The notes: generated by a model not told the origin, from the letters alone. DNA of 64,000 nt from an uncultured Gammaproteobacteria bacterium (GCA_964482695.1 CAYZYP010000001.1:4143-68142), one strand, 5' to 3'; numbered from the stretch's first letter, positions 8,466 to 17,393 are shown. A program made the numbers and translations.

Positions 8466-8467
8466 TT

Positions 8468-8725
8468 CTATTGATAAATGTCATGAGTACCAATTGAATG
8501 GAAGATAATTATATCATTCTGTCCAAATTCAAAAATAATACGGTATTTGTAACCAATAGAGAATGACCAAAAATTTTTAAGTCGGCCGCTAAGTTTGTGA
8601 GTTTTTAGTGATGGTGCGTGGCAATTTTCACGAAAAATTTGTTCGTTTTCTTCAGCGGTATCTTTAATATTATTAGGCAATTTTTTATACTCCCGAGCAA
8701 ATTTGGGAGTATAGACGATTTTCAT
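8468..8725 (-). CDS. Type II toxin, RelE/ParE superfamily
   Basis: 85 aa; MKIVYTPKFAREYKKL...HKLSGRLKNFWSFSIGYKYRIIFEF..DIIIFHSIGTH pattern typical of RelE/ParE toxins; 3 nt after the antitoxin gene. Confidence 0.7.
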   Translation of the reverse strand: MKIVYTPKFAREYKKLPNNIKDTAEENEQIFRENCHAPSLKTHKLSGRLKNFWSFSIGYKYRIIFEFGQNDIIIFHSIGTHDIYQ

Positions 8726-8727
8726 AA

Positions 8728-8943
8728 TTAACGTAAATCTTTAAGGGATTGAAGTGGTTTTGCTTTGCCAGCGGCAAATTCTTTTCTGCTTTTTTCTAGT
8801 TCATAAATAATTTTATTTTCCATTCGTTCACGTAAAATATGGCGAAAGAATTCGCTTACCGAAGCAAAACCACCAGTTTTAACCTCGTTCTTTATTTCTC
8901 TAACCATGATATTAGGTAAAGAGATATTTACAATATTGCGCAT
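8728..8943 (-). CDS. Ribbon-helix-helix (CopG/ParD-like) antitoxin
   Basis: 71 aa; ISLPNIMVREIKNEVKTGGFASVSEFFRHILRE matches RHH antitoxin N-terminal DNA-binding fold; immediately upstream of RelE-like gene. Confidence 0.65.
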   Translation of the reverse strand: MRNIVNISLPNIMVREIKNEVKTGGFASVSEFFRHILRERMENKIIYELEKSRKEFAAGKAKPLQSLKDLR

Positions 8944-8954
8944 AGACTTAATGT

Positions 8955-8990
8955 TATATGTAATAAATTGTAATAATTTGTATTACAATC
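8955..8990. promoter_or_regulatory. Candidate TA operator: palindrome attgtaata-atttg-tattacaat preceded by direct repeat tgtaataa
   Basis: Located 12-45 bp upstream of the RHH antitoxin start codon on the minus strand. Confidence 0.35.
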
Positions 8991-9015
8991 ATAACATGCT
9001 GCAAATTTTTGTCAA

Positions 9016-10272
9016 GTGCAAATTATGACCTCAAAAGATCAAGCAAAAAAGTTTCCTCTTTCACCGGGTGTTTATCGGTTTATAGATAAGAACGGTGGAA
9101 TTTTGTATATCGGCCGGGCAACCAATTTGCGTGGTCGGGTTTCGCATTACTTTGGAAAAGATATTGACCGCCGGATAGGCGAGATGGTTTCTTTGGCTAA
9201 AAATGTTAGATGCCAGAAAACCGATTCTATTTTGGAAGCGATTATTTTGGAAGCTAATTTGATTAAGAAATACTGGCCGAAATATAATATTAAAGATAGA
9301 GATGATAAATCATTTACTTATTTAGTAATTCCCAAAGGTGATTATCCCAAGCCGTTATTTATCCGCGGTCGTGAATTAGAAAAATTTCCAACTGCCAATG
9401 TTAATATTTTTGGTCCTTATCAAAACGCGGCATTGCTACGCAAGGCATTAAAAATAATCAGGCGGATTTTCCCTTATAGTACTTGCGTGCCCAATTCAGG
9501 GCGTCCTTGCTTTGATTATCAAATCGGTTTGTGTCCAGGTGTTTGCTTGGGTGCCATAAGTAAAAAAGATTATCAGAAAAATATTAAAAATTTAATTTTA
9601 TTTTTAAGCGGTGATAAAAAGAGGTTGTTTAAAAAGTTAAAAACAGAAAACCCAGAAGCGATTATTGCTTTAAAACAAATTCAGGACGTTGCGTTAATAA
9701 TAAATGATGAACAGACCTCCAATTGCCACCTTCTTCGCCACCGCCACAGCGGGATCCCGTTAAAGCGGGATAAAGAGGGGACAGATGGTGAATATAAGGA
9801 TTTTCGCGTAGAAGGTTATGATATTTCTCATTTTGCCGGTAAAGAAACCTATGGTTCTATGGTGGTGTTTAAAAATGGCCAGCCGGATAAAAGCCAATAT
9901 CGGCTTTTTAAAATTAAAACAGCGCCGGCCAGTGATGATTTAGCGGCGTTAACAGAAATGATAACCAGGCGGTTAAAACATTTAGAATGGCCAATGCCGG
10001 ATTTGATGGTGGTTGATGGCGGTTTGCCACAAGTCCGCCAAGTTTACAAAATTTTTAAAGTCGGCAAAGTAGACGTTTCTTTTGTTGGTATTTCTAAATT
10101 GCAGAATGATATTTTAGTTTTTCCTCCTGGCATTACCAAAACTTTCAGAGAGTTAGTAGAAGCGTCTAAACGGATGTTACTTCAAGTTCGCGACGAGGCG
10201 CACAGATTCGCGAATATGGCGAGAAAGAGGAAAATGGGAAAAACGTTGGAAAAAAATTATAATTTATCTTGA
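9016..10272 (+). CDS. uvrC: Excinuclease ABC subunit C (UvrC), compact form (418 aa) lacking C-terminal (HhH)2 region
   Basis: GIY-YIG N-terminus (GVYRFIDKNGGILYIGRATNLRGRVSHYF), Cys-rich middle, RNase H-like endonuclease segment VEGYDISHFAG. Confidence 0.8.
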   Translation: MQIMTSKDQAKKFPLSPGVYRFIDKNGGILYIGRATNLRGRVSHYFGKDIDRRIGEMVSLAKNVRCQKTDSILEAIILEANLIKKYWPKYNIKDRDDKSFTYLVIPKGDYPKPLFIRGRELEKFPTANVNIFGPYQNAALLRKALKIIRRIFPYSTCVPNSGRPCFDYQIGLCPGVCLGAISKKDYQKNIKNLILFLSGDKKRLFKKLKTENPEAIIALKQIQDVALIINDEQTSNCHLLRHRHSGIPLKRDKEGTDGEYKDFRVEGYDISHFAGKETYGSMVVFKNGQPDKSQYRLFKIKTAPASDDLAALTEMITRRLKHLEWPMPDLMVVDGGLPQVRQVYKIFKVGKVDVSFVGISKLQNDILVFPPGITKTFRELVEASKRMLLQVRDEAHRFANMARKRKMGKTLEKNYNLS

Positions 10273-10297
10273 CAAAAGCCATATTTTGTGCTATACT
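10269..10297 (+). promoter_or_regulatory. Candidate sigma70 promoter TTGACA-17-TATACT for the small acidic protein gene
   Basis: ttgaca aaagccatattttgtgc tatact overlapping the last codons of uvrC. Confidence 0.4.
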
Positions 10298-10354
10298 TAA
10301 TCTAAGTTTAAAGGCATTACCTTTAAATTTAGTTAGTTTTTAACTATAAAAAAT

Positions 10355-10624
10355 ATGGAAAGAACGCATCATAGCAAAATAGTAAAAGAGGATATAGAAG
10401 CAGACGAAGCGTTTAAAATGGGTCAACATCAGGATAGAATAGCATACGGCAGAGATCTAGAAGAAGCCAAGGCAACAATGAAAGCAGGCCTAGAAGAAGA
10501 AGAAAGAATACACCAACAAAATTTATCAGCCGAAGTGGCAATGAAAAGAGGCAAAAAAGCAGACGAAGAAGCCCATCAAAAGGGTTTGGCGGAAGAGCCA
10601 AAAGAATACGACAAAGCCGCGTAA
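10355..10624 (+). CDS. Hypothetical small highly charged (E/K/A-rich) protein
   Basis: 89-aa ORF with own promoter and strong terminator. Confidence 0.4.
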   Translation: MERTHHSKIVKEDIEADEAFKMGQHQDRIAYGRDLEEAKATMKAGLEEEERIHQQNLSAEVAMKRGKKADEEAHQKGLAEEPKEYDKAA

Positions 10625-10638
10625 AAATTTTTAAACAC

Positions 10639-10668
10639 AAAACCGCTCTAAAAAGGGCGGTTTTTTAT
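10639..10668. terminator. Rho-independent terminator (aaccgctc taaaaa gggcgg + T6), between convergent genes
   Basis: GC hairpin followed by tttttt on + strand; reverse orientation also partly U-rich. Confidence 0.6.
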
Positions 10669-10670
10669 TT

Positions 10671-12638
10671 TCATTGGCACAAAGGAAAAGTACAAGTTAC
10701 TTTTGTGCCTTTGTTTATTTCACTTTCTATCTTTATATCCCCATCATGATTTTTTATGATTCTTTCACAGATTGCCAAACCAAGGCCGGTGCCCTTTACG
10801 CTATTGTTGGTGTTATTATCAGCTCGATAGAAGCGTTTAAATAAATTTTGTAATTCTATCTTGGCTATGCCAATTCCACTGTCATTTATTACAAGTAAAA
10901 CATTATTTTTATCTCTTTTTAAATTAATAATTATTTTTCTTTCATTGGCAGTATATTTAAAAGCATTGCTTACCAAATTGGTTATTAATTCTTCTAGCTG
11001 TTTTGCTTGGCCAAACAAATAAATGTTGGGTTCTATATTAGAAATAATGTTTATTTTATTTTGTTTAGCTATAACTTGGAAGTATTCTATCAAATCAGTT
11101 AGTAAATAACTAAAATTTATTTTTTGTTTATTATTAACATCAAATTTAAAATCTAACCTAGCTAATTTTAACAAATCAGAAATAAATTTCGAAATATTAT
11201 CTATTGATTTAGAGCATATTTTAAAAGTGTCATTTTTATTGTAACTATTTTCCAGTTGGCACAATTCGCCTTTGATTATTGTTAAAGGAGTTTGTAAGGC
11301 ATGAGAAATATCTAACATCATTTGTGATTGTTTTTCTTGTAAATTTGTTATTTCTTTAGTTCTATTTTTTACCTTTTCTTCCAAATTTTTGGAATAATTT
11401 TTTATTTGTTCATAAAGCCGCGCTTTTTCCAAAGCCATGGTTACTTGGTAAGCAAACGTTTCTAATAATTTTAAATCTTGTTTGCTATAATAGTCACCAG
11501 AAAGTTTTGGTCCTAATAATAAAAAACCAATATTTTTATTTTCTAATAAAAGAGGCACACTGGCGGTTTTCTCGTGCCTGTCATCTATTGAATGTTGGCT
11601 ATAAGTTGTATTTAAAATATAACTAGCTGTACTGGCATGGAGAATTTGTTTTAATTTATCGTTAGTTTCATCAATAATATCTTGTTGATTAATATTTTTG
11701 TTAGCGATAAAACTTAATTCACGCAAAGCCTCGCTATAATTGTATTTATCTTTGAAAAATATTTTATCAGTAAAACGACGAAAGTACAGTTCTATTATTG
11801 GTACGGTAAAAATACCAAAAATAGTAGTAATAATAGCGCTGATAAAATAATTAAAGTGGCTATTGTTTTTTAATAAAACAAGCGAAGTAAATAATATTGA
11901 TAAATAAAATATTATAATAATGCTTAAAATAGCAATATAAATTAAACCGCGTTGGATGATTATTTTGATGTCTAGCAATTTATGTTTTAAGATGACGTAG
12001 CTAGTGAAGATAGCCAAGAAGATAGAAAATTGCGGTCCAAGACTGTAGAATCGAATCTCTCCAAGTAAAGGTAAAATTACGGTAAAAATAATCGCTCCAA
12101 ATAATACCAAAAAAACTCCCATTTTTATGTAGATGATTTGTCTTTTTTGTAGCCACGATGCTTTTGGATAATAGAATAATAAGCGTGTGCCGCCATAAAT
12201 CAAACCGCCCAAAAGAAAAAGTAAAATAGGATAACTAACGATGCCGAGGGTGATTTGCGTGGGCGCATTAGGCGGAAAAAATGTTTCTATTGTATATAAT
12301 TTGGTGAAACTACAAATAGAAAAAATAATACTGGGCGTTAAAAAAAGTATCTTTTTTATTTTACTTAGTCGGTTGTTGATAAAAAATTCTATAAAACATA
12401 AATGATAACTAACAAAAAAGACACCGCCTGTAACAGCCAAACCGCTATAAATTCGCAAAGCCAGATCGCTACTCGCGACATCAGCCATGGCATTACTGCC
12501 AACCCAAACCGTGATGAATAAAATATATAGTCCAAGGTATTTAGCGAGAATGTTGTGTTTCTTTTGTATAAAAACGAAAGCCGCGACCCCCAGGTTTATT
12601 AAAGTGAGAATCGCGGCGGAAATAGTGAAAATAAACAT
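10671..12638 (-). CDS. Sensor histidine kinase with large multi-TM N-terminal sensor region; no response regulator gene adjacent in this window
   Basis: H-box ISHALQTPLT, HATPase_c motifs NLVSNAFKYT, DSGIGI, GTGLGLAI; ~9 N-terminal TM helices. Confidence 0.8.
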   Translation of the reverse strand: MFIFTISAAILTLINLGVAAFVFIQKKHNILAKYLGLYILFITVWVGSNAMADVASSDLALRIYSGLAVTGGVFFVSYHLCFIEFFINNRLSKIKKILFLTPSIIFSICSFTKLYTIETFFPPNAPTQITLGIVSYPILLFLLGGLIYGGTRLLFYYPKASWLQKRQIIYIKMGVFLVLFGAIIFTVILPLLGEIRFYSLGPQFSIFLAIFTSYVILKHKLLDIKIIIQRGLIYIAILSIIIIFYLSILFTSLVLLKNNSHFNYFISAIITTIFGIFTVPIIELYFRRFTDKIFFKDKYNYSEALRELSFIANKNINQQDIIDETNDKLKQILHASTASYILNTTYSQHSIDDRHEKTASVPLLLENKNIGFLLLGPKLSGDYYSKQDLKLLETFAYQVTMALEKARLYEQIKNYSKNLEEKVKNRTKEITNLQEKQSQMMLDISHALQTPLTIIKGELCQLENSYNKNDTFKICSKSIDNISKFISDLLKLARLDFKFDVNNKQKINFSYLLTDLIEYFQVIAKQNKINIISNIEPNIYLFGQAKQLEELITNLVSNAFKYTANERKIIINLKRDKNNVLLVINDSGIGIAKIELQNLFKRFYRADNNTNNSVKGTGLGLAICERIIKNHDGDIKIESEINKGTKVTCTFPLCQ

Positions 12639-12670
12639 AACTAGTTTAAGAGCTGATTAAAATTGATTGC

Positions 12671-13381
12671 TTAGGGGTGTTTACACCGCAAAAGAATACT
12701 AAAATCTCTGCTCTGAGGATCGTGGAGAAAATTGGGCAAGACGGCCAGGATTACTATATGCGGATTATGTAAATATTTGCGCAAAATAAGATCAGGTTCG
12801 GCTAAAGTCGGCAGGTTTGGCAGTTCAGGTTTAGCTGGCAATGTAGGAGCAGCGCATCCGTTTACCATTTTAACACATTCCCAAACATACGATAAGGCAA
12901 GCTGTTTTTCTTGTTCCGGCCTAAAGCCGCTTACCACGGCCTGATTAAAGTAGTCGGAAAATCCGGGGATCCGCGAAACGCCGTGTAGTGGCTTGTGGCG
13001 CGAGTAGGCAAAGTCAACGCAAGCTTGCAGAAGTACGTGTCCGCTGCCGCGATCTACCGAGCAGATAGTAATGCCGAAGTGGCAGTTACCGTTTGGGTCG
13101 TGGACGTGGCGAGAGAATCCGTTATCTGTTAAGTCGTTAAAGGTGGCCAGTCGCGAGATTCCAGCGGCAGTTAGATGGGTAATAAAACAGTAAGTGAAGG
13201 CGGTTATTACGCCATTTTTTTCTGCCAACAAAAATCCCTCGGGGTAAACGTCTAACCATGTTTTGAAGTGTTCCTCCCTATACACTTCAGTACCGGCGTT
13301 TCCCCAAACTTTTTCTTCTACCGCGACGATTTGGGCGATGTCAGCCCAAGTTGCTTGGCGAATTTTTAGTTTTTCTGTCAT
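12671..13381 (-). CDS. GNAT-family N-acetyltransferase-like protein with unusual Pro-rich C-terminal extension; GC-rich gene
   Basis: N-terminal IRQATWADIAQIVAVEEKVW... resembles GNAT fold; local GC clearly above window average. Confidence 0.45.
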   Translation of the reverse strand: MTEKLKIRQATWADIAQIVAVEEKVWGNAGTEVYREEHFKTWLDVYPEGFLLAEKNGVITAFTYCFITHLTAAGISRLATFNDLTDNGFSRHVHDPNGNCHFGITICSVDRGSGHVLLQACVDFAYSRHKPLHGVSRIPGFSDYFNQAVVSGFRPEQEKQLALSYVWECVKMVNGCAAPTLPAKPELPNLPTLAEPDLILRKYLHNPHIVILAVLPNFLHDPQSRDFSILLRCKHP

Positions 13382-13396
13382 CAGCTTCTCCTTGGT

Positions 13397-13795
13397 TTAC
13401 TCGTGCAGGTTATTAACCGGAAATTCAAGCCCACGTTCTATCACTTGCCAGACAATCTTTTTGGCAGAGAACTTGGCCTTGACGTACGCGACCACTTTTT
13501 CCGGATCAAAGTTCTGGCAGGAAAATAGATCCATGAAAAAGCAGTCTTTTTTGCAGTAGGTGTGGATGCTGATGTGAGAGGTGACAATTAGGATTATGCC
13601 ACTCGCGCCAGCGACTGCTGAATCATCAAAACTCGCCACCACCGGCTGGCTTGCTTTTTGCATGCCAACCAACTCCGGCAGTTCTTCTAGCACTTGTTGT
13701 AGTAAGTTGGTGTCGTTTAATTTGTCTGGATCTGCTTGGTAGCAGTCCATAACAAGGTGCAGACCGTAGTATTTATCTTTTTCTCCAATTTCCAT
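13397..13795 (-). CDS. speH: S-adenosylmethionine decarboxylase proenzyme, small class 1 (SpeH/SpeD-like); start taken at MEIGEKDKYYGLHLVMDCY
   Basis: GLHLVMDCYQADPDKLND...IILIVTSHISIHTY...FFMDLFSCQNFDP matches pyruvoyl-dependent AdoMetDC core (HISIHTWPE-like). Confidence 0.65.
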   Translation of the reverse strand: MEIGEKDKYYGLHLVMDCYQADPDKLNDTNLLQQVLEELPELVGMQKASQPVVASFDDSAVAGASGIILIVTSHISIHTYCKKDCFFMDLFSCQNFDPEKVVAYVKAKFSAKKIVWQVIERGLEFPVNNLHE

Positions 13796-13830
13796 GTTTA
13801 TCTCCTTAGGTTGTGAAAGAGCGTTGTTTT

Positions 13831-14487
13831 TTATTTTGTTATTAACGGCGCTAGGATAGTGTTGTGTTTCCAGTACAAACATTCTTTTGGCGGATTGACA
13901 TAACAGATTTTTTTATCAATTTTTTTAAATCCAGCTTGCTGTAAATAGTGCAGATGATTAGGTGAAAAATTATCAACTTCATCTGAATAGTAAGTTAAAA
14001 TTCCGTTTGGTTTTAAAATTCGGTACGCTTCTGGAAAGAATTTAAAATGATTGCAATGGATTTCTTTTTTTCGTAAAGGATAGGTGTCAAACAAAATGCC
14101 GTCTATGCTGTTACTAGGAATAGTTTTAATTGTATCTTCCCAAAAACCTAAGATCGGTTCAATAGAAAAATTAGTTTGTTTTTGAAAATCAAAAATAGTC
14201 TTCCAAACTTGTTTGTTGGCTTCTATTATAATATGCTTTGTTATCTGGCGCTTCTGAATATATTTAGCAGAAATACCCATGCCAAAACCAACTTCCAAAA
14301 TAGCCCCGCCATTTTTAGTGGCAATTTCTGCTAGTAGTTTCATGTAATTGTCTTCCCAGCTTTCCATTATCGGGTGGCCGCAAATTCGCAGTTTATCCCG
14401 CGTGATAAAAATAGGTGCGTCCAGCCATTTTTGTCTGATATTTTTAAAGCCGATTTGTAGGCGAGTTTGGTAGGTATTAATATACAT
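13831..14487 (-). CDS. Guanidinoacetate N-methyltransferase (GAMT)-like SAM-dependent methyltransferase
   Basis: RICGHPIMESWEDNYMKLLAEIATKNGGAILEVGFGMGISAKYIQ...GILFDTYPL...LKPNGILTYY...ILAPLITK closely parallels GAMT (RILGKPVMERWETPYM...GGRVLEVGFGMAIAASKVQ...MITPLVTKG). Confidence 0.65.
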   Translation of the reverse strand: MYINTYQTRLQIGFKNIRQKWLDAPIFITRDKLRICGHPIMESWEDNYMKLLAEIATKNGGAILEVGFGMGISAKYIQKRQITKHIIIEANKQVWKTIFDFQKQTNFSIEPILGFWEDTIKTIPSNSIDGILFDTYPLRKKEIHCNHFKFFPEAYRILKPNGILTYYSDEVDNFSPNHLHYLQQAGFKKIDKKICYVNPPKECLYWKHNTILAPLITK

Positions 14488-14575
14488 AGGTGATTGGTAA
14501 TAATATTATCGACATTCATAATAGCATATACCTACCTATGAAATTATAAATTAAAGATAAAATAAAAATAAACTA

Positions 14576-14601
14576 TGTCACGTTAGTGACATAGTTTAAA
14601 A
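14576..14601 (-). terminator. Hairpin aactatgtcac-gtta-gtgacatagtt followed by T-rich run on minus strand; second similar palindrome at 14641-14672
   Basis: Perfect 11-bp stem; downstream (minus sense) tatttttatttt. Confidence 0.4.
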
Positions 14602-14716
14602 TTACACAACATTTTTTTCCATCCGTTTTTTAGCTCCTTGCTATGTTTACAATTAGTTTGTAAACATAGTGGGAAGCGGATGGGGGAGTCCGCTTGAAGG
14701 TGTGAGTGTAGAGGAA

Positions 14717-14995
14717 CTAGTACCGAATGCCCCAGATTTGCGAGTTGTACCTATAGGCATCGTCGGAGTAGTAGACTGTTTTTTCGACCTTGGGCTTCCG
14801 CCCGTTACTCTTCTTCAAAGCGTCGAGGCCGTTGCCTTTTCCGATGACCGGTGCGTTCGGCACCTTCTCCGGATCCATGCCCTTTTGGAGCTGGTATAGG
14901 CAGCCTCCGATCCAGGCGAGCGTCTGGACGTCGACTCCGAGTTGTCGGGCGAACTTTCTTTTTGTTGTCTTTCTTCTTCGTACTGTGGCGTTCAT
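14717..14995 (-). CDS. Small basic protein (92 aa) with possible HTH segment, in GC-rich patch; strong SD
   Basis: aaggaggtg 5 nt upstream of ATG on minus strand; KFARQLGVDVQTLAWIGG weakly HTH/excisionase-like; GC ~55% vs AT-rich surroundings. Confidence 0.35.
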   Translation of the reverse strand: MNATVRRRKTTKRKFARQLGVDVQTLAWIGGCLYQLQKGMDPEKVPNAPVIGKGNGLDALKKSNGRKPKVEKTVYYSDDAYRYNSQIWGIRY

Positions 14996-15104
14996 ACGCC
15001 ACCTCCTTTATCTAGCCCGCTGTAGCACCACACCATGATCGGCGAGGTGCAAAAGCAGGTCGTGTAATCAAAAATAACAAAGATATATATATATGTCAAT
15101 AGAC

Positions 15105-15145
15105 AAAAACAAAAAAATAGGGGCAGGTTTAAAACCTGCCCCTAC
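15105..15145 (-). terminator. Rho-independent terminator downstream of rplS (ggggcagg-tttaaaa-cctgcccc + U-run on minus strand)
   Basis: Perfect 8-bp GC stem then tatttttttgttttt in minus sense. Confidence 0.55.
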
Positions 15146-15165
15146 GATTAGAAAATATTTGAATC

Positions 15166-15513
15166 TTATTTTTTTACTTCTTTTTTCTTTTCTTTCATTT
15201 TTCTTTTGAATTTTGGATCACGCAAATAATGTAATTTAGCCCTTCTTACTTTGTATTCTTTAACTATCTGGATTTTGGCTACAGCTGGCGAATGAATAGG
15301 ATAAATTTTTTCCACGCCAACACCATCAGAAACTTTGCGCACAGTAATAGTGGCGCCAGCTTCGGCCCCGTGTTTGGCGGCAATAATTGTGCCTTCGTAA
15401 ATTTGAATACGTTCTTTTTCTTCGCCTTTAGTGTTCATTTCTTTAATTTTTTCATGCACCTTTACCACCATGCCTGGTTTGTAGGCATTTTTTTTATTTT
15501 GTTCTTCGGTCAT
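15166..15513 (-). CDS. rplS: 50S ribosomal protein L19
   Basis: [27 protein letters not shown]...RRAKLHYLR. Confidence 0.85.
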
Positions 15514-16329: not shown

Positions 16330-17313
16330 TTAATGCAAGTTTTTTAGAAAGCTCTCTAATTCTAATGGTAGTTCTATGGTAAATTTTTTCTTTTCATTTT
16401 TTAAATTCACAAAACCTAATTGACAACAATGCAAAAATAGCCGCCCGCATTTTTCGTCCCACTTTCGTTTTTGTTTTTTTTGAAAATATAACGGATCGCC
16501 AACTATAGGGTGATTATACGCCAAAAAATGCGTGCGGATTTGGTGCATACGGCCGGTATAGATTTTAACGCGCAAAAGAGTAAAATTCACAAAACGTTTT
16601 TCAACCAAAAATTCTGTTTTAGCTTCACGGCCATCATCCGACGTCAGTCCATCTTTAAGGTAAGGAATAGCCGCCATCCGGTCGCTATTTTTTGTTCTTT
16701 TAATTGGAAAATTAATTTCATCCCAATCTTTATGTATTTTACCGTGAACCAAGACTAAATATTCTTTTTCTATTTCTCTTTTTTTGAATTGTTCTTTTAA
16801 ACACCCAAACATTTTTTGTGTTCGTGCTACTACCAAAAGACCAGACGCTTCCTTGTCTAGACGGTGAACAATGCCAGGGCGTGTTTCCGGATCATCGCCA
16901 ACTTTTTTAATTTCCGGATATTTCTTTGCCAAAACAGAAGCCACACTCATCGATTCGCGAGCCATGGTTGGGTGAGTAAGCAAGCCAGATGGTTTGTTTA
17001 TTACCAGATAATCGTCGGTTTCGGCGACAATGTTTAATTTAGAATATTTAGCAGAGTTGGCAGCCGGCTTGGGCTGTTTAATTGTTTTAGGTAATTTAGG
17101 TTTTTTGATTATCTTAGATAGTATAATTTTGTCGCCATCTTTTATTAAATTACCGGCTTTTTTAGGTTGTTTATCATTAATTGTTATTTGTTTATTATCT
17201 ATCATTTTTCGTACTTGCGAGCGAGAGACGCCTAATTTTTTTGTCAAAAAAATATCCAGCCGTTGATTGGCAAGTGGCGCGGAAACTGTAAATGTGGTCG
17301 TAAGAGAAGTCAT
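16330..17313 (-). CDS. RluA-family 23S rRNA pseudouridine synthase (RluD-like) with N-terminal S4 domain; start taken at MTSLTTTF
   Basis: S4 motif VSRSQVRKMIDNKQITIN, catalytic HRLDKEASGLLVVA. Confidence 0.75.
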   Translation of the reverse strand: MTSLTTTFTVSAPLANQRLDIFLTKKLGVSRSQVRKMIDNKQITINDKQPKKAGNLIKDGDKIILSKIIKKPKLPKTIKQPKPAANSAKYSKLNIVAETDDYLVINKPSGLLTHPTMARESMSVASVLAKKYPEIKKVGDDPETRPGIVHRLDKEASGLLVVARTQKMFGCLKEQFKKREIEKEYLVLVHGKIHKDWDEINFPIKRTKNSDRMAAIPYLKDGLTSDDGREAKTEFLVEKRFVNFTLLRVKIYTGRMHQIRTHFLAYNHPIVGDPLYFQKKQKRKWDEKCGRLFLHCCQLGFVNLKNEKKKFTIELPLELESFLKNLH

Positions 17314-17319
17314 ATATAG

Positions 17320-17393
17320 TGGGCATGGATGGACTCGAACCATCGACATCCACCTTATAAGGGTGGCGCTCTAACCAACTGAGCTACATGCCC
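17320..17393 (-). tRNA. tRNA-Ile with anticodon UAU (reads AUA)
   Basis: Manual fold of reverse complement: acceptor GGGCATG/CATGCCC, D-stem GCTC/GAGC, anticodon stem CCACC/GGTGG with loop CTTATAA, T-arm GATGG-TTCGAGT-CCATC, discriminator A; no encoded CCA. Confidence 0.7.

Follow-up and report, generated by a model that had tools for sequence, protein, structure and literature searches.

A foreign-looking, GC-rich candidate transcription unit with an orphan reading frame in the regulator slot of a Candidatus Magasanikbacteria gene cluster

The stretch of DNA analyzed here, referred to in the following as the window, is a 64-kb metagenomic sequence (GCA_964482695.1 CAYZYP010000001.1:4143-68142), placed by the relatives of its L19 protein in Candidatus Magasanikbacteria of the candidate phyla radiation (CPR/Patescibacteria). 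At 14672-15068 it carries a patch of 397 bp with 54.4% GC and sharp borders on both sides, about 20 points above the host, the contig having 34.7% GC overall. The GC maximum of the whole window falls inside the patch (200-nt peak 0.58 vs. a mean of 0.347, sd 0.06), in agreement with an initial annotation, made from the sequence alone, that had marked a compositional anomaly of ~55% GC here. The neighbours are the rplS terminator (15117-15145, minus strand) on one side and a guanidinoacetate-N-methyltransferase (GAMT)-like gene (13831-14487, minus strand) on the other. Five open reading frames (ORFs) of at least 40 aa overlap in the patch (76 aa on the plus strand, 92 aa minus, 82 aa plus, 65 aa minus and 54 aa plus); the initial annotation had noted an overlap of four called ORFs. 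The 92-aa ORF is referred to in the following as p92. On its strand, the patch is predicted to be a self-contained, monocistronic transcription unit with promoter, leader, Shine–Dalgarno (SD) sequence and ATG, the ORF, three hairpins and a terminator. The features of the unit and its borders are as follows:

14672-15068, no strand: GC-rich patch, from the GC profile.
15117-15145, minus: predicted intrinsic terminator of rplS, a 13-bp stem followed by a T-run; end of the conserved host synteny.
15071-15099, minus: predicted sigma-70-type promoter, TTGACA-17-TATTTT with a TG-extended -10; 10/12 matches plus TG.
15016-15059, minus: predicted 5'-leader hairpin; leader fold z = -4.6 vs. shuffles.
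14985-15008, minus: SD sequence AAGGAGGTG (15008->15000) and a 7-bp hairpin (15002->14985), from sequence and folding.
14717-14995, minus: p92 ORF, 92 aa, with ATG at 14995 and an in-frame stop 5 codons upstream.
14674-14695, minus: hairpin a, GC-rich 7-bp stem AAGCGGA/TCCGCTT, just past the stop codon and at the GC boundary.
14641-14669, minus: hairpin b, AT-rich, 12-bp perfect arms CTATGTTTACAA/TTGTAAACATAG with 100% complementarity and no U-run on either strand.
14559-14598, minus: hairpin c, predicted intrinsic terminator of the p92 unit, with a 13-bp stem (14569-14598), a 4-nt loop and the tail TTTTTATTTT.
14553-14561, minus: box TTTATCTTT, directly after the terminator; a conserved cis-element of the methyltransferase operon.

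The predicted promoter sits in AT-rich DNA directly upstream of the patch, and the predicted start, at ~15064, coincides with the first GC-rich bases. Sites with a perfect -35 plus the TG extension number just three in the 64 kb when both strands (128 kb) are counted, and the p92 promoter is among them. The SD sequence AAGGAGGTG lies 4 nt before the ATG at 14995, and AAGGAGGT lies 5 nt before it. In the SD–AUG hairpin, the 3' part of the SD sequence is in the stem and the AUG in the loop. Because of the in-frame stop 5 codons upstream of the ATG, the p92 frame is self-contained. At the other end of the unit, the palindrome at 14569-14598 combines a stable stem-loop with an immediate U-run, as expected of an intrinsic terminator. 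Both of these signals, a strong SD sequence before a 92-aa minus-strand ORF and a terminator made of a hairpin and a U-run, had been proposed in the initial annotation and were confirmed.

The 3' region folds far better than shuffled sequences (z = -8.3); the stretch 14553-14700 spans the TTATCTTT box as well as the hairpins. Past hairpin b and before the terminator there is another SD-like sequence, AAGGAG (14639->14634, minus strand), with two tiny ORFs after it, MEKNVV from 14622 and MLCNFKLCH from 14612, the latter ending in the terminator loop. An alternative pairing across hairpin b is also possible, between the 10-nt CCATCCGTTT (14619-14628) and AAGCGGATGG (14674-14683).

The window sequence recurs in groundwater-metagenome assemblies (ENA ERZ909578 and ERZ909575, and JGI 3300009296), with 1-2 mismatches per 4-12 kb. 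Outside the window, the identical patch with both flanks was found in three contigs that come from three samples, namely two ENA assemblies and a JGI metagenome, so the patch is not an assembly artefact. Among the copies from the three samples, no substitutions were found inside the patch. The sole polymorphism in the spacer is at position 15096, which is T in the window and in the third contig (L002), and C in ENA contig k127_314714 (L001, L052) and the JGI contig (L053); this single-nucleotide polymorphism (SNP) turns the -35 of the p92 promoter from TTGACA to TTGGCA. No other copy of the patch was found within the 64-kb window.

Among the overlapping frames, p92 is the longest and the best coding candidate, with three-base periodicity, a perfect SD sequence properly spaced from its ATG, and a promoter and terminator of its own. 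Its GC content at the three codon positions is.51/.41/.69 (chi2 = 16.35, p = 2.8e-4). Such a pattern is usual for a gene of a GC-rich genome. The antisense 82-aa ORF is the sole other frame compatible with the periodicity; it was rejected as the gene on account of its atypical GC2>GC1 and the lack of a homologue. When the window was searched with Rfam 15 at gathering thresholds, the only match was a tRNA at 17320-17393, and no family was found in the patch. In E-value mode, a search of 14400-15250 returned nothing but noise inside 14672-15068, and the weak matches obtained were to terminator hairpins: PyrG_leader (34 vs. 65 bits) and L20_leader (33 vs. 59 bits), the latter corresponding to the rplS terminator hairpin at 15117-15145. 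ARAGORN found no tmRNA. Folding of the whole patch compared with shuffles gave z = -2.6 for the minus strand and -1.3 for the plus strand. The initial annotation, which was to fall with a match to a known structured RNA, came through these searches. We infer that p92 is, or recently was, a real gene.

The translation signal of p92 is out of keeping with the host. In the window, 48 of the 55 long ORFs match the SD consensus over no more than 3 nt, and AAGGAGGTG is unique on both strands. The only other canonical SD sequence is an AAGGAG located 6 nt before the ATG of unk236, a gene for an unknown protein at 12671-13381 (minus strand). Canonical SD sequences at the usual spacing were found only before these two GC-rich units, p92 and unk236, the latter being an islet of 47% GC. 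The SD sequence and the 20-point GC excess together point to a donor of higher GC that uses SD sequences, presumably an organism of ~55% GC. Of the mobile or phage-derived origin suspected in the initial annotation, the foreign look of the patch was borne out, by the GC excess of 20 points, by the canonical SD sequence in an SD-poor genome and by the position at the edge of an insertion, described below.

The methyltransferase gene next to the patch belongs to a conserved CPR gene cluster that encodes an OmpR-type response regulator, a GAMT-like methyltransferase, a homologue of AdoMet decarboxylase (AdoMetDC/SpeD), an unknown protein of ~236 aa and a histidine kinase. The window contains the following cluster genes and, further along, a toxin–antitoxin pair:

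13831-14487, minus: GAMT-like methyltransferase gene (PF27704), first gene of the cluster, assigned by homology; homologues at no more than 63% identity.
13397-13882, minus: AdoMetDC/SpeD homologue, cluster gene.
12671-13381, minus: unk236, unknown 236-aa gene with no significant Pfam match (sub-threshold GNAT, E=0.19).
10671-12638, minus: histidine kinase gene, intact, 655 aa, cluster gene.
8468-8725 and 8728-8943, minus: ParE/RelE-family toxin and RHH (CopG) antitoxin, a type II pair at the uvrA-proximal edge of the insertion.

Ten loci with the full cluster and some upstream DNA were available for comparison (L054, L055, L057, L059, L063, L065, L070, L071, L075 and L088). The OmpR-type regulator gene lies directly upstream of the methyltransferase gene in nine of them and after the kinase gene in the tenth. 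In the window, this slot, defined by place and strand relative to the methyltransferase gene, is taken by the patch. No response regulator was found in the 64-kb window, where three cluster regulators used as tblastn queries had no match better than E=0.1. A decayed regulator gene within the patch was considered and rejected on this result and on a profile search, in which a hidden Markov model (HMM) of 11 cluster regulators scored negative bits on all six frames of 14488-15166.

In the relatives, the regulator and methyltransferase genes are separated by a terminator hairpin, whose sequence is unrelated, and by a box, TTATC(N)TT, that comes after it. Nine of 12 such spacers have the box, for which the background is 0.41 per kb, and in L071 and L075 it occurs as CTTTATCT direct repeats; it is probably the binding site of the regulator. 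The spacer layout is kept in the window, with the terminator at 14598-14569 followed by TTTTATCTTT, and the DNA leftward from the terminator is therefore native operon DNA rather than part of the patch. The p92 unit thus resembles the cluster regulator gene in its slot, its strand and the terminator and TTATC(N)TT box downstream of it, but p92 has only 92 aa, compared with ~225 aa for the regulator, lacks a receiver domain and shows no similarity to it in any frame. The reverse complement of the box, AGATAAAG, occurs repeatedly ahead of the regulator gene in L059, L071 and L075; in the window, AGATAAAG also overlaps the p92 SD sequence (15013->15006, minus strand).

The cluster itself looks mosaic, since the decarboxylase homologue and unk236 have 44-47% GC and the methyltransferase and kinase genes 30-34%. 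Homologous clusters occur in genomes of 32-61% GC, and SpeD homologues have been described as frequently transferred horizontally among CPR bacteria in subsurface water (PMC10407285). Some genomes (P0090, P0097 and P0114) have the methyltransferase fused to the decarboxylase homologue.

On a larger scale, the patch lies at the border of a 6.7-kb insertion. In eight Magasanikbacteria relatives, the block queA, yceG, NTP-transferase, PAP2, rluD, gmk and rplS is followed by a convergent uvrA. In these relatives, ~60-230 nt separate the ends of the rplS and uvrA matches; in L003 and L011, whose spacers were read, the distance is ~60 nt. In the window, rplS and uvrA are 6.7 kb apart (8466-15165), and the DNA between them holds the ParE/RHH pair, uvrC, an 89-aa ORF, the kinase gene, unk236, the decarboxylase homologue, the methyltransferase gene and the patch. 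The ParE/RHH pair forms one edge of the insertion and the patch the rplS-proximal one. A ninth relative (L006) carries a different insertion at the same site, with a 1327-aa ORF, and the rplS–uvrA site may therefore be a hot spot. No repeat of at least 11 nt was common to the two island edges, as would be expected of att-like repeats, and no integrase or transposase gene was found in the 6.7-kb insert. The patch thus forms the rplS-proximal edge of a region that is variable and was acquired horizontally. It resembles small ORFan genes at the margins of genomic islands in its atypical GC, its foreign SD sequence, its location at the edge of a lineage-specific insertion, the toxin–antitoxin pair in the same insert and the lack of detectable homologues. 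It differs from them in that the insert lacks an integrase, a tRNA attachment site and direct repeats at its flanks, and in that the p92 unit is far GC-richer than the rest of the insert and sits in the regulator slot of a conserved operon.

The 89-aa ORF of the insert (10355-10624, plus strand), located in the gap between uvrC and the kinase gene, is highly charged, has no Pfam match and was called by the public gene caller. On the other side of the patch, the tRNA at 17319-17393 (minus strand) is a tRNA-Ile with a UAU anticodon, which is unusual for bacteria. The RluD-type ORF (339 aa, 16330-17349) runs into this tRNA, and its real start must therefore lie further downstream; the public call is 337 aa.

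The p92 protein would be hydrophilic, with a pI of 10.2 and a net charge of +11.5, and its predicted tryptic peptides include FARQLGVDVQTLAWIGGCLYQLQK and TVYYSDDAYR. A low-confidence AlphaFold model has helices at residues 10-19, 23-37, 56-62 and 78-88. Together, these properties suggest a small, very basic and largely helical protein, which from its composition is most plausibly nucleic-acid-binding.

Homology searches with p92 were consistently empty. An exhaustive phmmer (HMMER) search of 1.84 billion representative proteins (called genes only) returned zero homologues, and a word-indexed search of 5.8 billion clusters returned none. No similarity to the patch was detected by blastn, nhmmer or tblastn in 49 related CPR loci downstream of rplS, nor in 83 methyltransferase-cluster loci. 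Lack of conservation in any relative, which the initial annotation had named as speaking against its own reading, is thus what the searches found: 0 matches in 1.84 billion proteins and 0 in 130 related loci. Against phages and plasmids, tblastn was empty and blastn gave only chance matches of 28-59 nt. Scans for p92 peptide patterns in viral, genome and metagenome contigs found none, and neither did a scan of viral contigs for one exact DNA pattern. The missing DNA relatives are weak evidence, because the scanned DNA collections did not return even the JGI contig that bears the patch.

In Pfam at E<=1, p92 matched only E3_binding at a sub-threshold E=0.17, with no HTH_17, MerR or HTH_Tnp. The PHROGs search gave a single 14-residue match to a family of unknown function (E=0.0098) and nothing significant, and the NCBIfam, PADLOC and PDB sequence searches gave no match. 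The initial annotation had suggested that p92 might be a helix-turn-helix (HTH) protein, an excisionase or a Tnp OrfA, and had proposed a profile search for HTH_17/excisionase and Tnp OrfA; that search found no HTH family at E<=1, none of the Pfam, PHROGs, NCBIfam and PADLOC profiles backed the suggestion, and there was no PDB relative. Since p92 has no homologue in any search, the HTH/excisionase identity is unsupported. The genes adjacent to the patch are rplS and the methyltransferase gene, with no integrase or OrfB gene, and the p92 ORF is followed by hairpins and a terminator rather than by an OrfB, as it would be for an IS3 OrfA.

Two short inverted copies of a 10-nt sequence flank the unit:

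14601-14610, plus: left copy of the inverted repeat, ATTACACAAC, pairing 9/10 with 15059-15068 (GTCGTGTAAT).
15059-15068, minus: right copy, read as ATTACACGAC on this strand; falls exactly on the GC boundary, with 2 nt between it and the -10 hexamer.

The two copies bracket 468 bp, which is all of the DNA between the terminator and the -10 hexamer, and exact ATTACACRAC occurs only three times in the window. No target-site duplication at the repeat was visible in the window sequence. The repeat may mark a recombination or element boundary, or may be due to chance. In its size (~470 bp), its one small orphan ORF, its atypical GC, its palindromic 3' region and its 10-nt terminal inverted repeats (9/10), the bracketed segment resembles integron cassettes or miniature inverted-repeat transposable elements (MITEs). 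It differs from them in having no attC core sites, no visible target-site duplication, no second copy in the window and no integron integrase; core sites of the form RYYYAAC/GTTRRRY were looked for by regex on both strands of 14540-15120, and neither motif occurs there.

The initial annotation had also described two palindromes with shared half-sites and had read them as an operator pair. Both palindromes are real and perfect, and each contains CTATGT/ACATAG. The heptamer ACTATGT occurs nine times in the window against 4.8 expected, three of the nine being located here, and 8 of 100 shuffles reach nine; the chance of two such hairpins sharing a 6-mer was estimated at ~5%, so the sharing is marginal. 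Neither palindrome overlaps the p92 promoter and neither is conserved in the relatives. Because the window keeps the terminator-then-box layout of the relatives, the first palindrome is the terminator of the upstream unit and not an operator. The initial annotation had listed the terminator hairpin and this operator-like palindrome as two things, so that the same hairpin had been counted twice. The shared half-sites stand, but an operator pair is not supported, and only the second hairpin is left as a candidate.

In sum, the patch is real and, with its sharp borders and foreign look, makes a miniature transcription unit around an orphan ORF. We read it as a mini-gene cassette, or what is left of one, that was gained by horizontal transfer. 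We give a probability of about 0.5 to the reading that a small gene came in horizontally and displaced the regulator gene. In this scenario, ~400-470 bp of horizontally acquired DNA would have entered between the promoter and the terminator of the regulator gene, presumably by illegitimate recombination; the regulator gene would have been displaced, and the kinase would have been left without a partner in the window. Transcription would start from the host-like, AT-rich sigma-70 promoter (15099-15071) at the first GC-rich bases and would yield an RNA of ~500 nt with a structured leader, an SD sequence partly sequestered together with the AUG, the 92-codon ORF, three hairpins and the terminator at 14598-14569.

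Several results weigh against a displaced regulator and a functional p92. The empty phmmer search leaves p92 without any homologue from which purifying selection could be read. The length of the ORF is not significant: at least 92 codons were reached in 24% of dinucleotide-preserving shuffles of the patch when any start was allowed and in 5.6% with ATG, and the gene caller of the public collection left p92 uncalled. The single-sequence AlphaFold model has a low confidence (pLDDT 55.7), and the best Foldseek match of this model in the PDB, at E 2.3, is meaningless. A stable hairpin partly hides the SD sequence and the AUG; since, in addition, host genes are largely without SD sequences, efficient translation of p92 in this host is doubtful. 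Finally, the replacement itself was deduced from gene order in distant relatives, whose methyltransferases are no more than 63% identical.

Much of this would also be expected if the patch were inert foreign filler, which is the main rival: a GC-rich fragment would have integrated at the island edge, the regulator gene would have been deleted, and the DNA would now be decaying, with the ORF, the SD sequence and the hairpins as leftovers from the donor that have no function in the host. The absence of homologues and conservation, an uncalled ORF of non-significant length, an SD sequence and AUG held in a hairpin in a host whose genes largely lack SD sequences, and a segregating TTGACA to TTGGCA change in the -35, as expected of an unconstrained promoter, all fit such a history. 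We nevertheless consider it somewhat unlikely, because the unit is unusually complete for debris, with a top-ranked promoter at the boundary, an SD sequence, an ATG, an intact frame with GC3 periodicity and a terminator; the unameliorated GC and the undisrupted frame argue instead for recent acquisition or for selection. A chimeric assembly, or read-through from a contaminant in the metagenome contig, would account for the sharp borders in composition, but the same sequence with both flanks in three further contigs from three samples effectively refutes it, and its chance is negligible.

Alternatively, the promoter at 15099 could drive a structured non-coding RNA gene of ~400-500 nt that is specific to the lineage, and the ORF in it would be incidental. 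In AT-rich genomes, a GC-rich island is often an RNA gene, and the present island has its own promoter and terminator, no gene called in it, and a leader (z = -4.6) and 3' region (z = -8.3) that fold better than shuffles. These two z-scores are due mainly to perfect hairpins of the untranslated regions, the terminator among them, and the whole patch is only modestly better than shuffles (z = -2.6). As there was, moreover, no Rfam match at permissive E-values and no tmRNA, and as an RNA gene leaves the three-base periodicity in phase with the SD-led ORF unexplained, we regard this explanation as improbable. We are still more sceptical of the reading in the initial annotation, by which p92 derives from a phage or mobile element, as an excisionase/HTH regulator or an insertion sequence (IS) OrfA remnant, and the palindromes serve as its operators. 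The patch does border an insertion whose far edge carries a toxin–antitoxin pair, and two hairpins share ACTATGT. Like excisionases of the HTH_17 type and IS3 OrfA proteins, p92 falls within 60-100 aa, has a basic N-terminus, lies in acquired DNA and has an HTH-like predicted segment, a helix at 10-19, a turn and a helix at 23-37 over ARQLGVDVQTLAW in the low-confidence model. Unlike them, it matches no profile, lacks a partner integrase or OrfB gene and is without relatives in phages or plasmids: no profile backs the helix-turn-helix appearance of ARQLGVDVQTLAW, HTH_17, MerR and HTH_Tnp were absent at E<=1, PHROGs, PADLOC and the PDB held no relatives, and tblastn against phages and plasmids was empty. 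The 6.7-kb insert lacks an integrase or transposase gene, no att-like repeats join its edges, and one of the two supposed operators is a terminator in the same place as the terminators of the relatives.

The most far-reaching version of the displacement scenario is a long shot. According to it, p92 would found an unsampled family of small basic nucleic-acid-binding proteins, carried on a ~470-bp cassette that is bounded by the inverted repeats and enters between a promoter and a terminator already in place, and would have replaced the cognate regulator of a polyamine-type operon under two-component control, rewiring it from control by the kinase to control by a foreign mini-regulator.

As a single orphan sequence without comparative support, the patch is of modest value in itself. 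Probably of wider use are the CPR gene cluster with its TTATC(N)TT box, the lack of a regulator in the window and the near-absence of SD sequences in this Magasanikbacterium. CPR genomes are small and thought to be streamlined. If p92 is expressed, it would represent the capture by a CPR genome of a foreign mini-gene, with non-native translation signals, in the place of a regulator gene, and could serve as an example of operon control being rewired by very short horizontal transfers.

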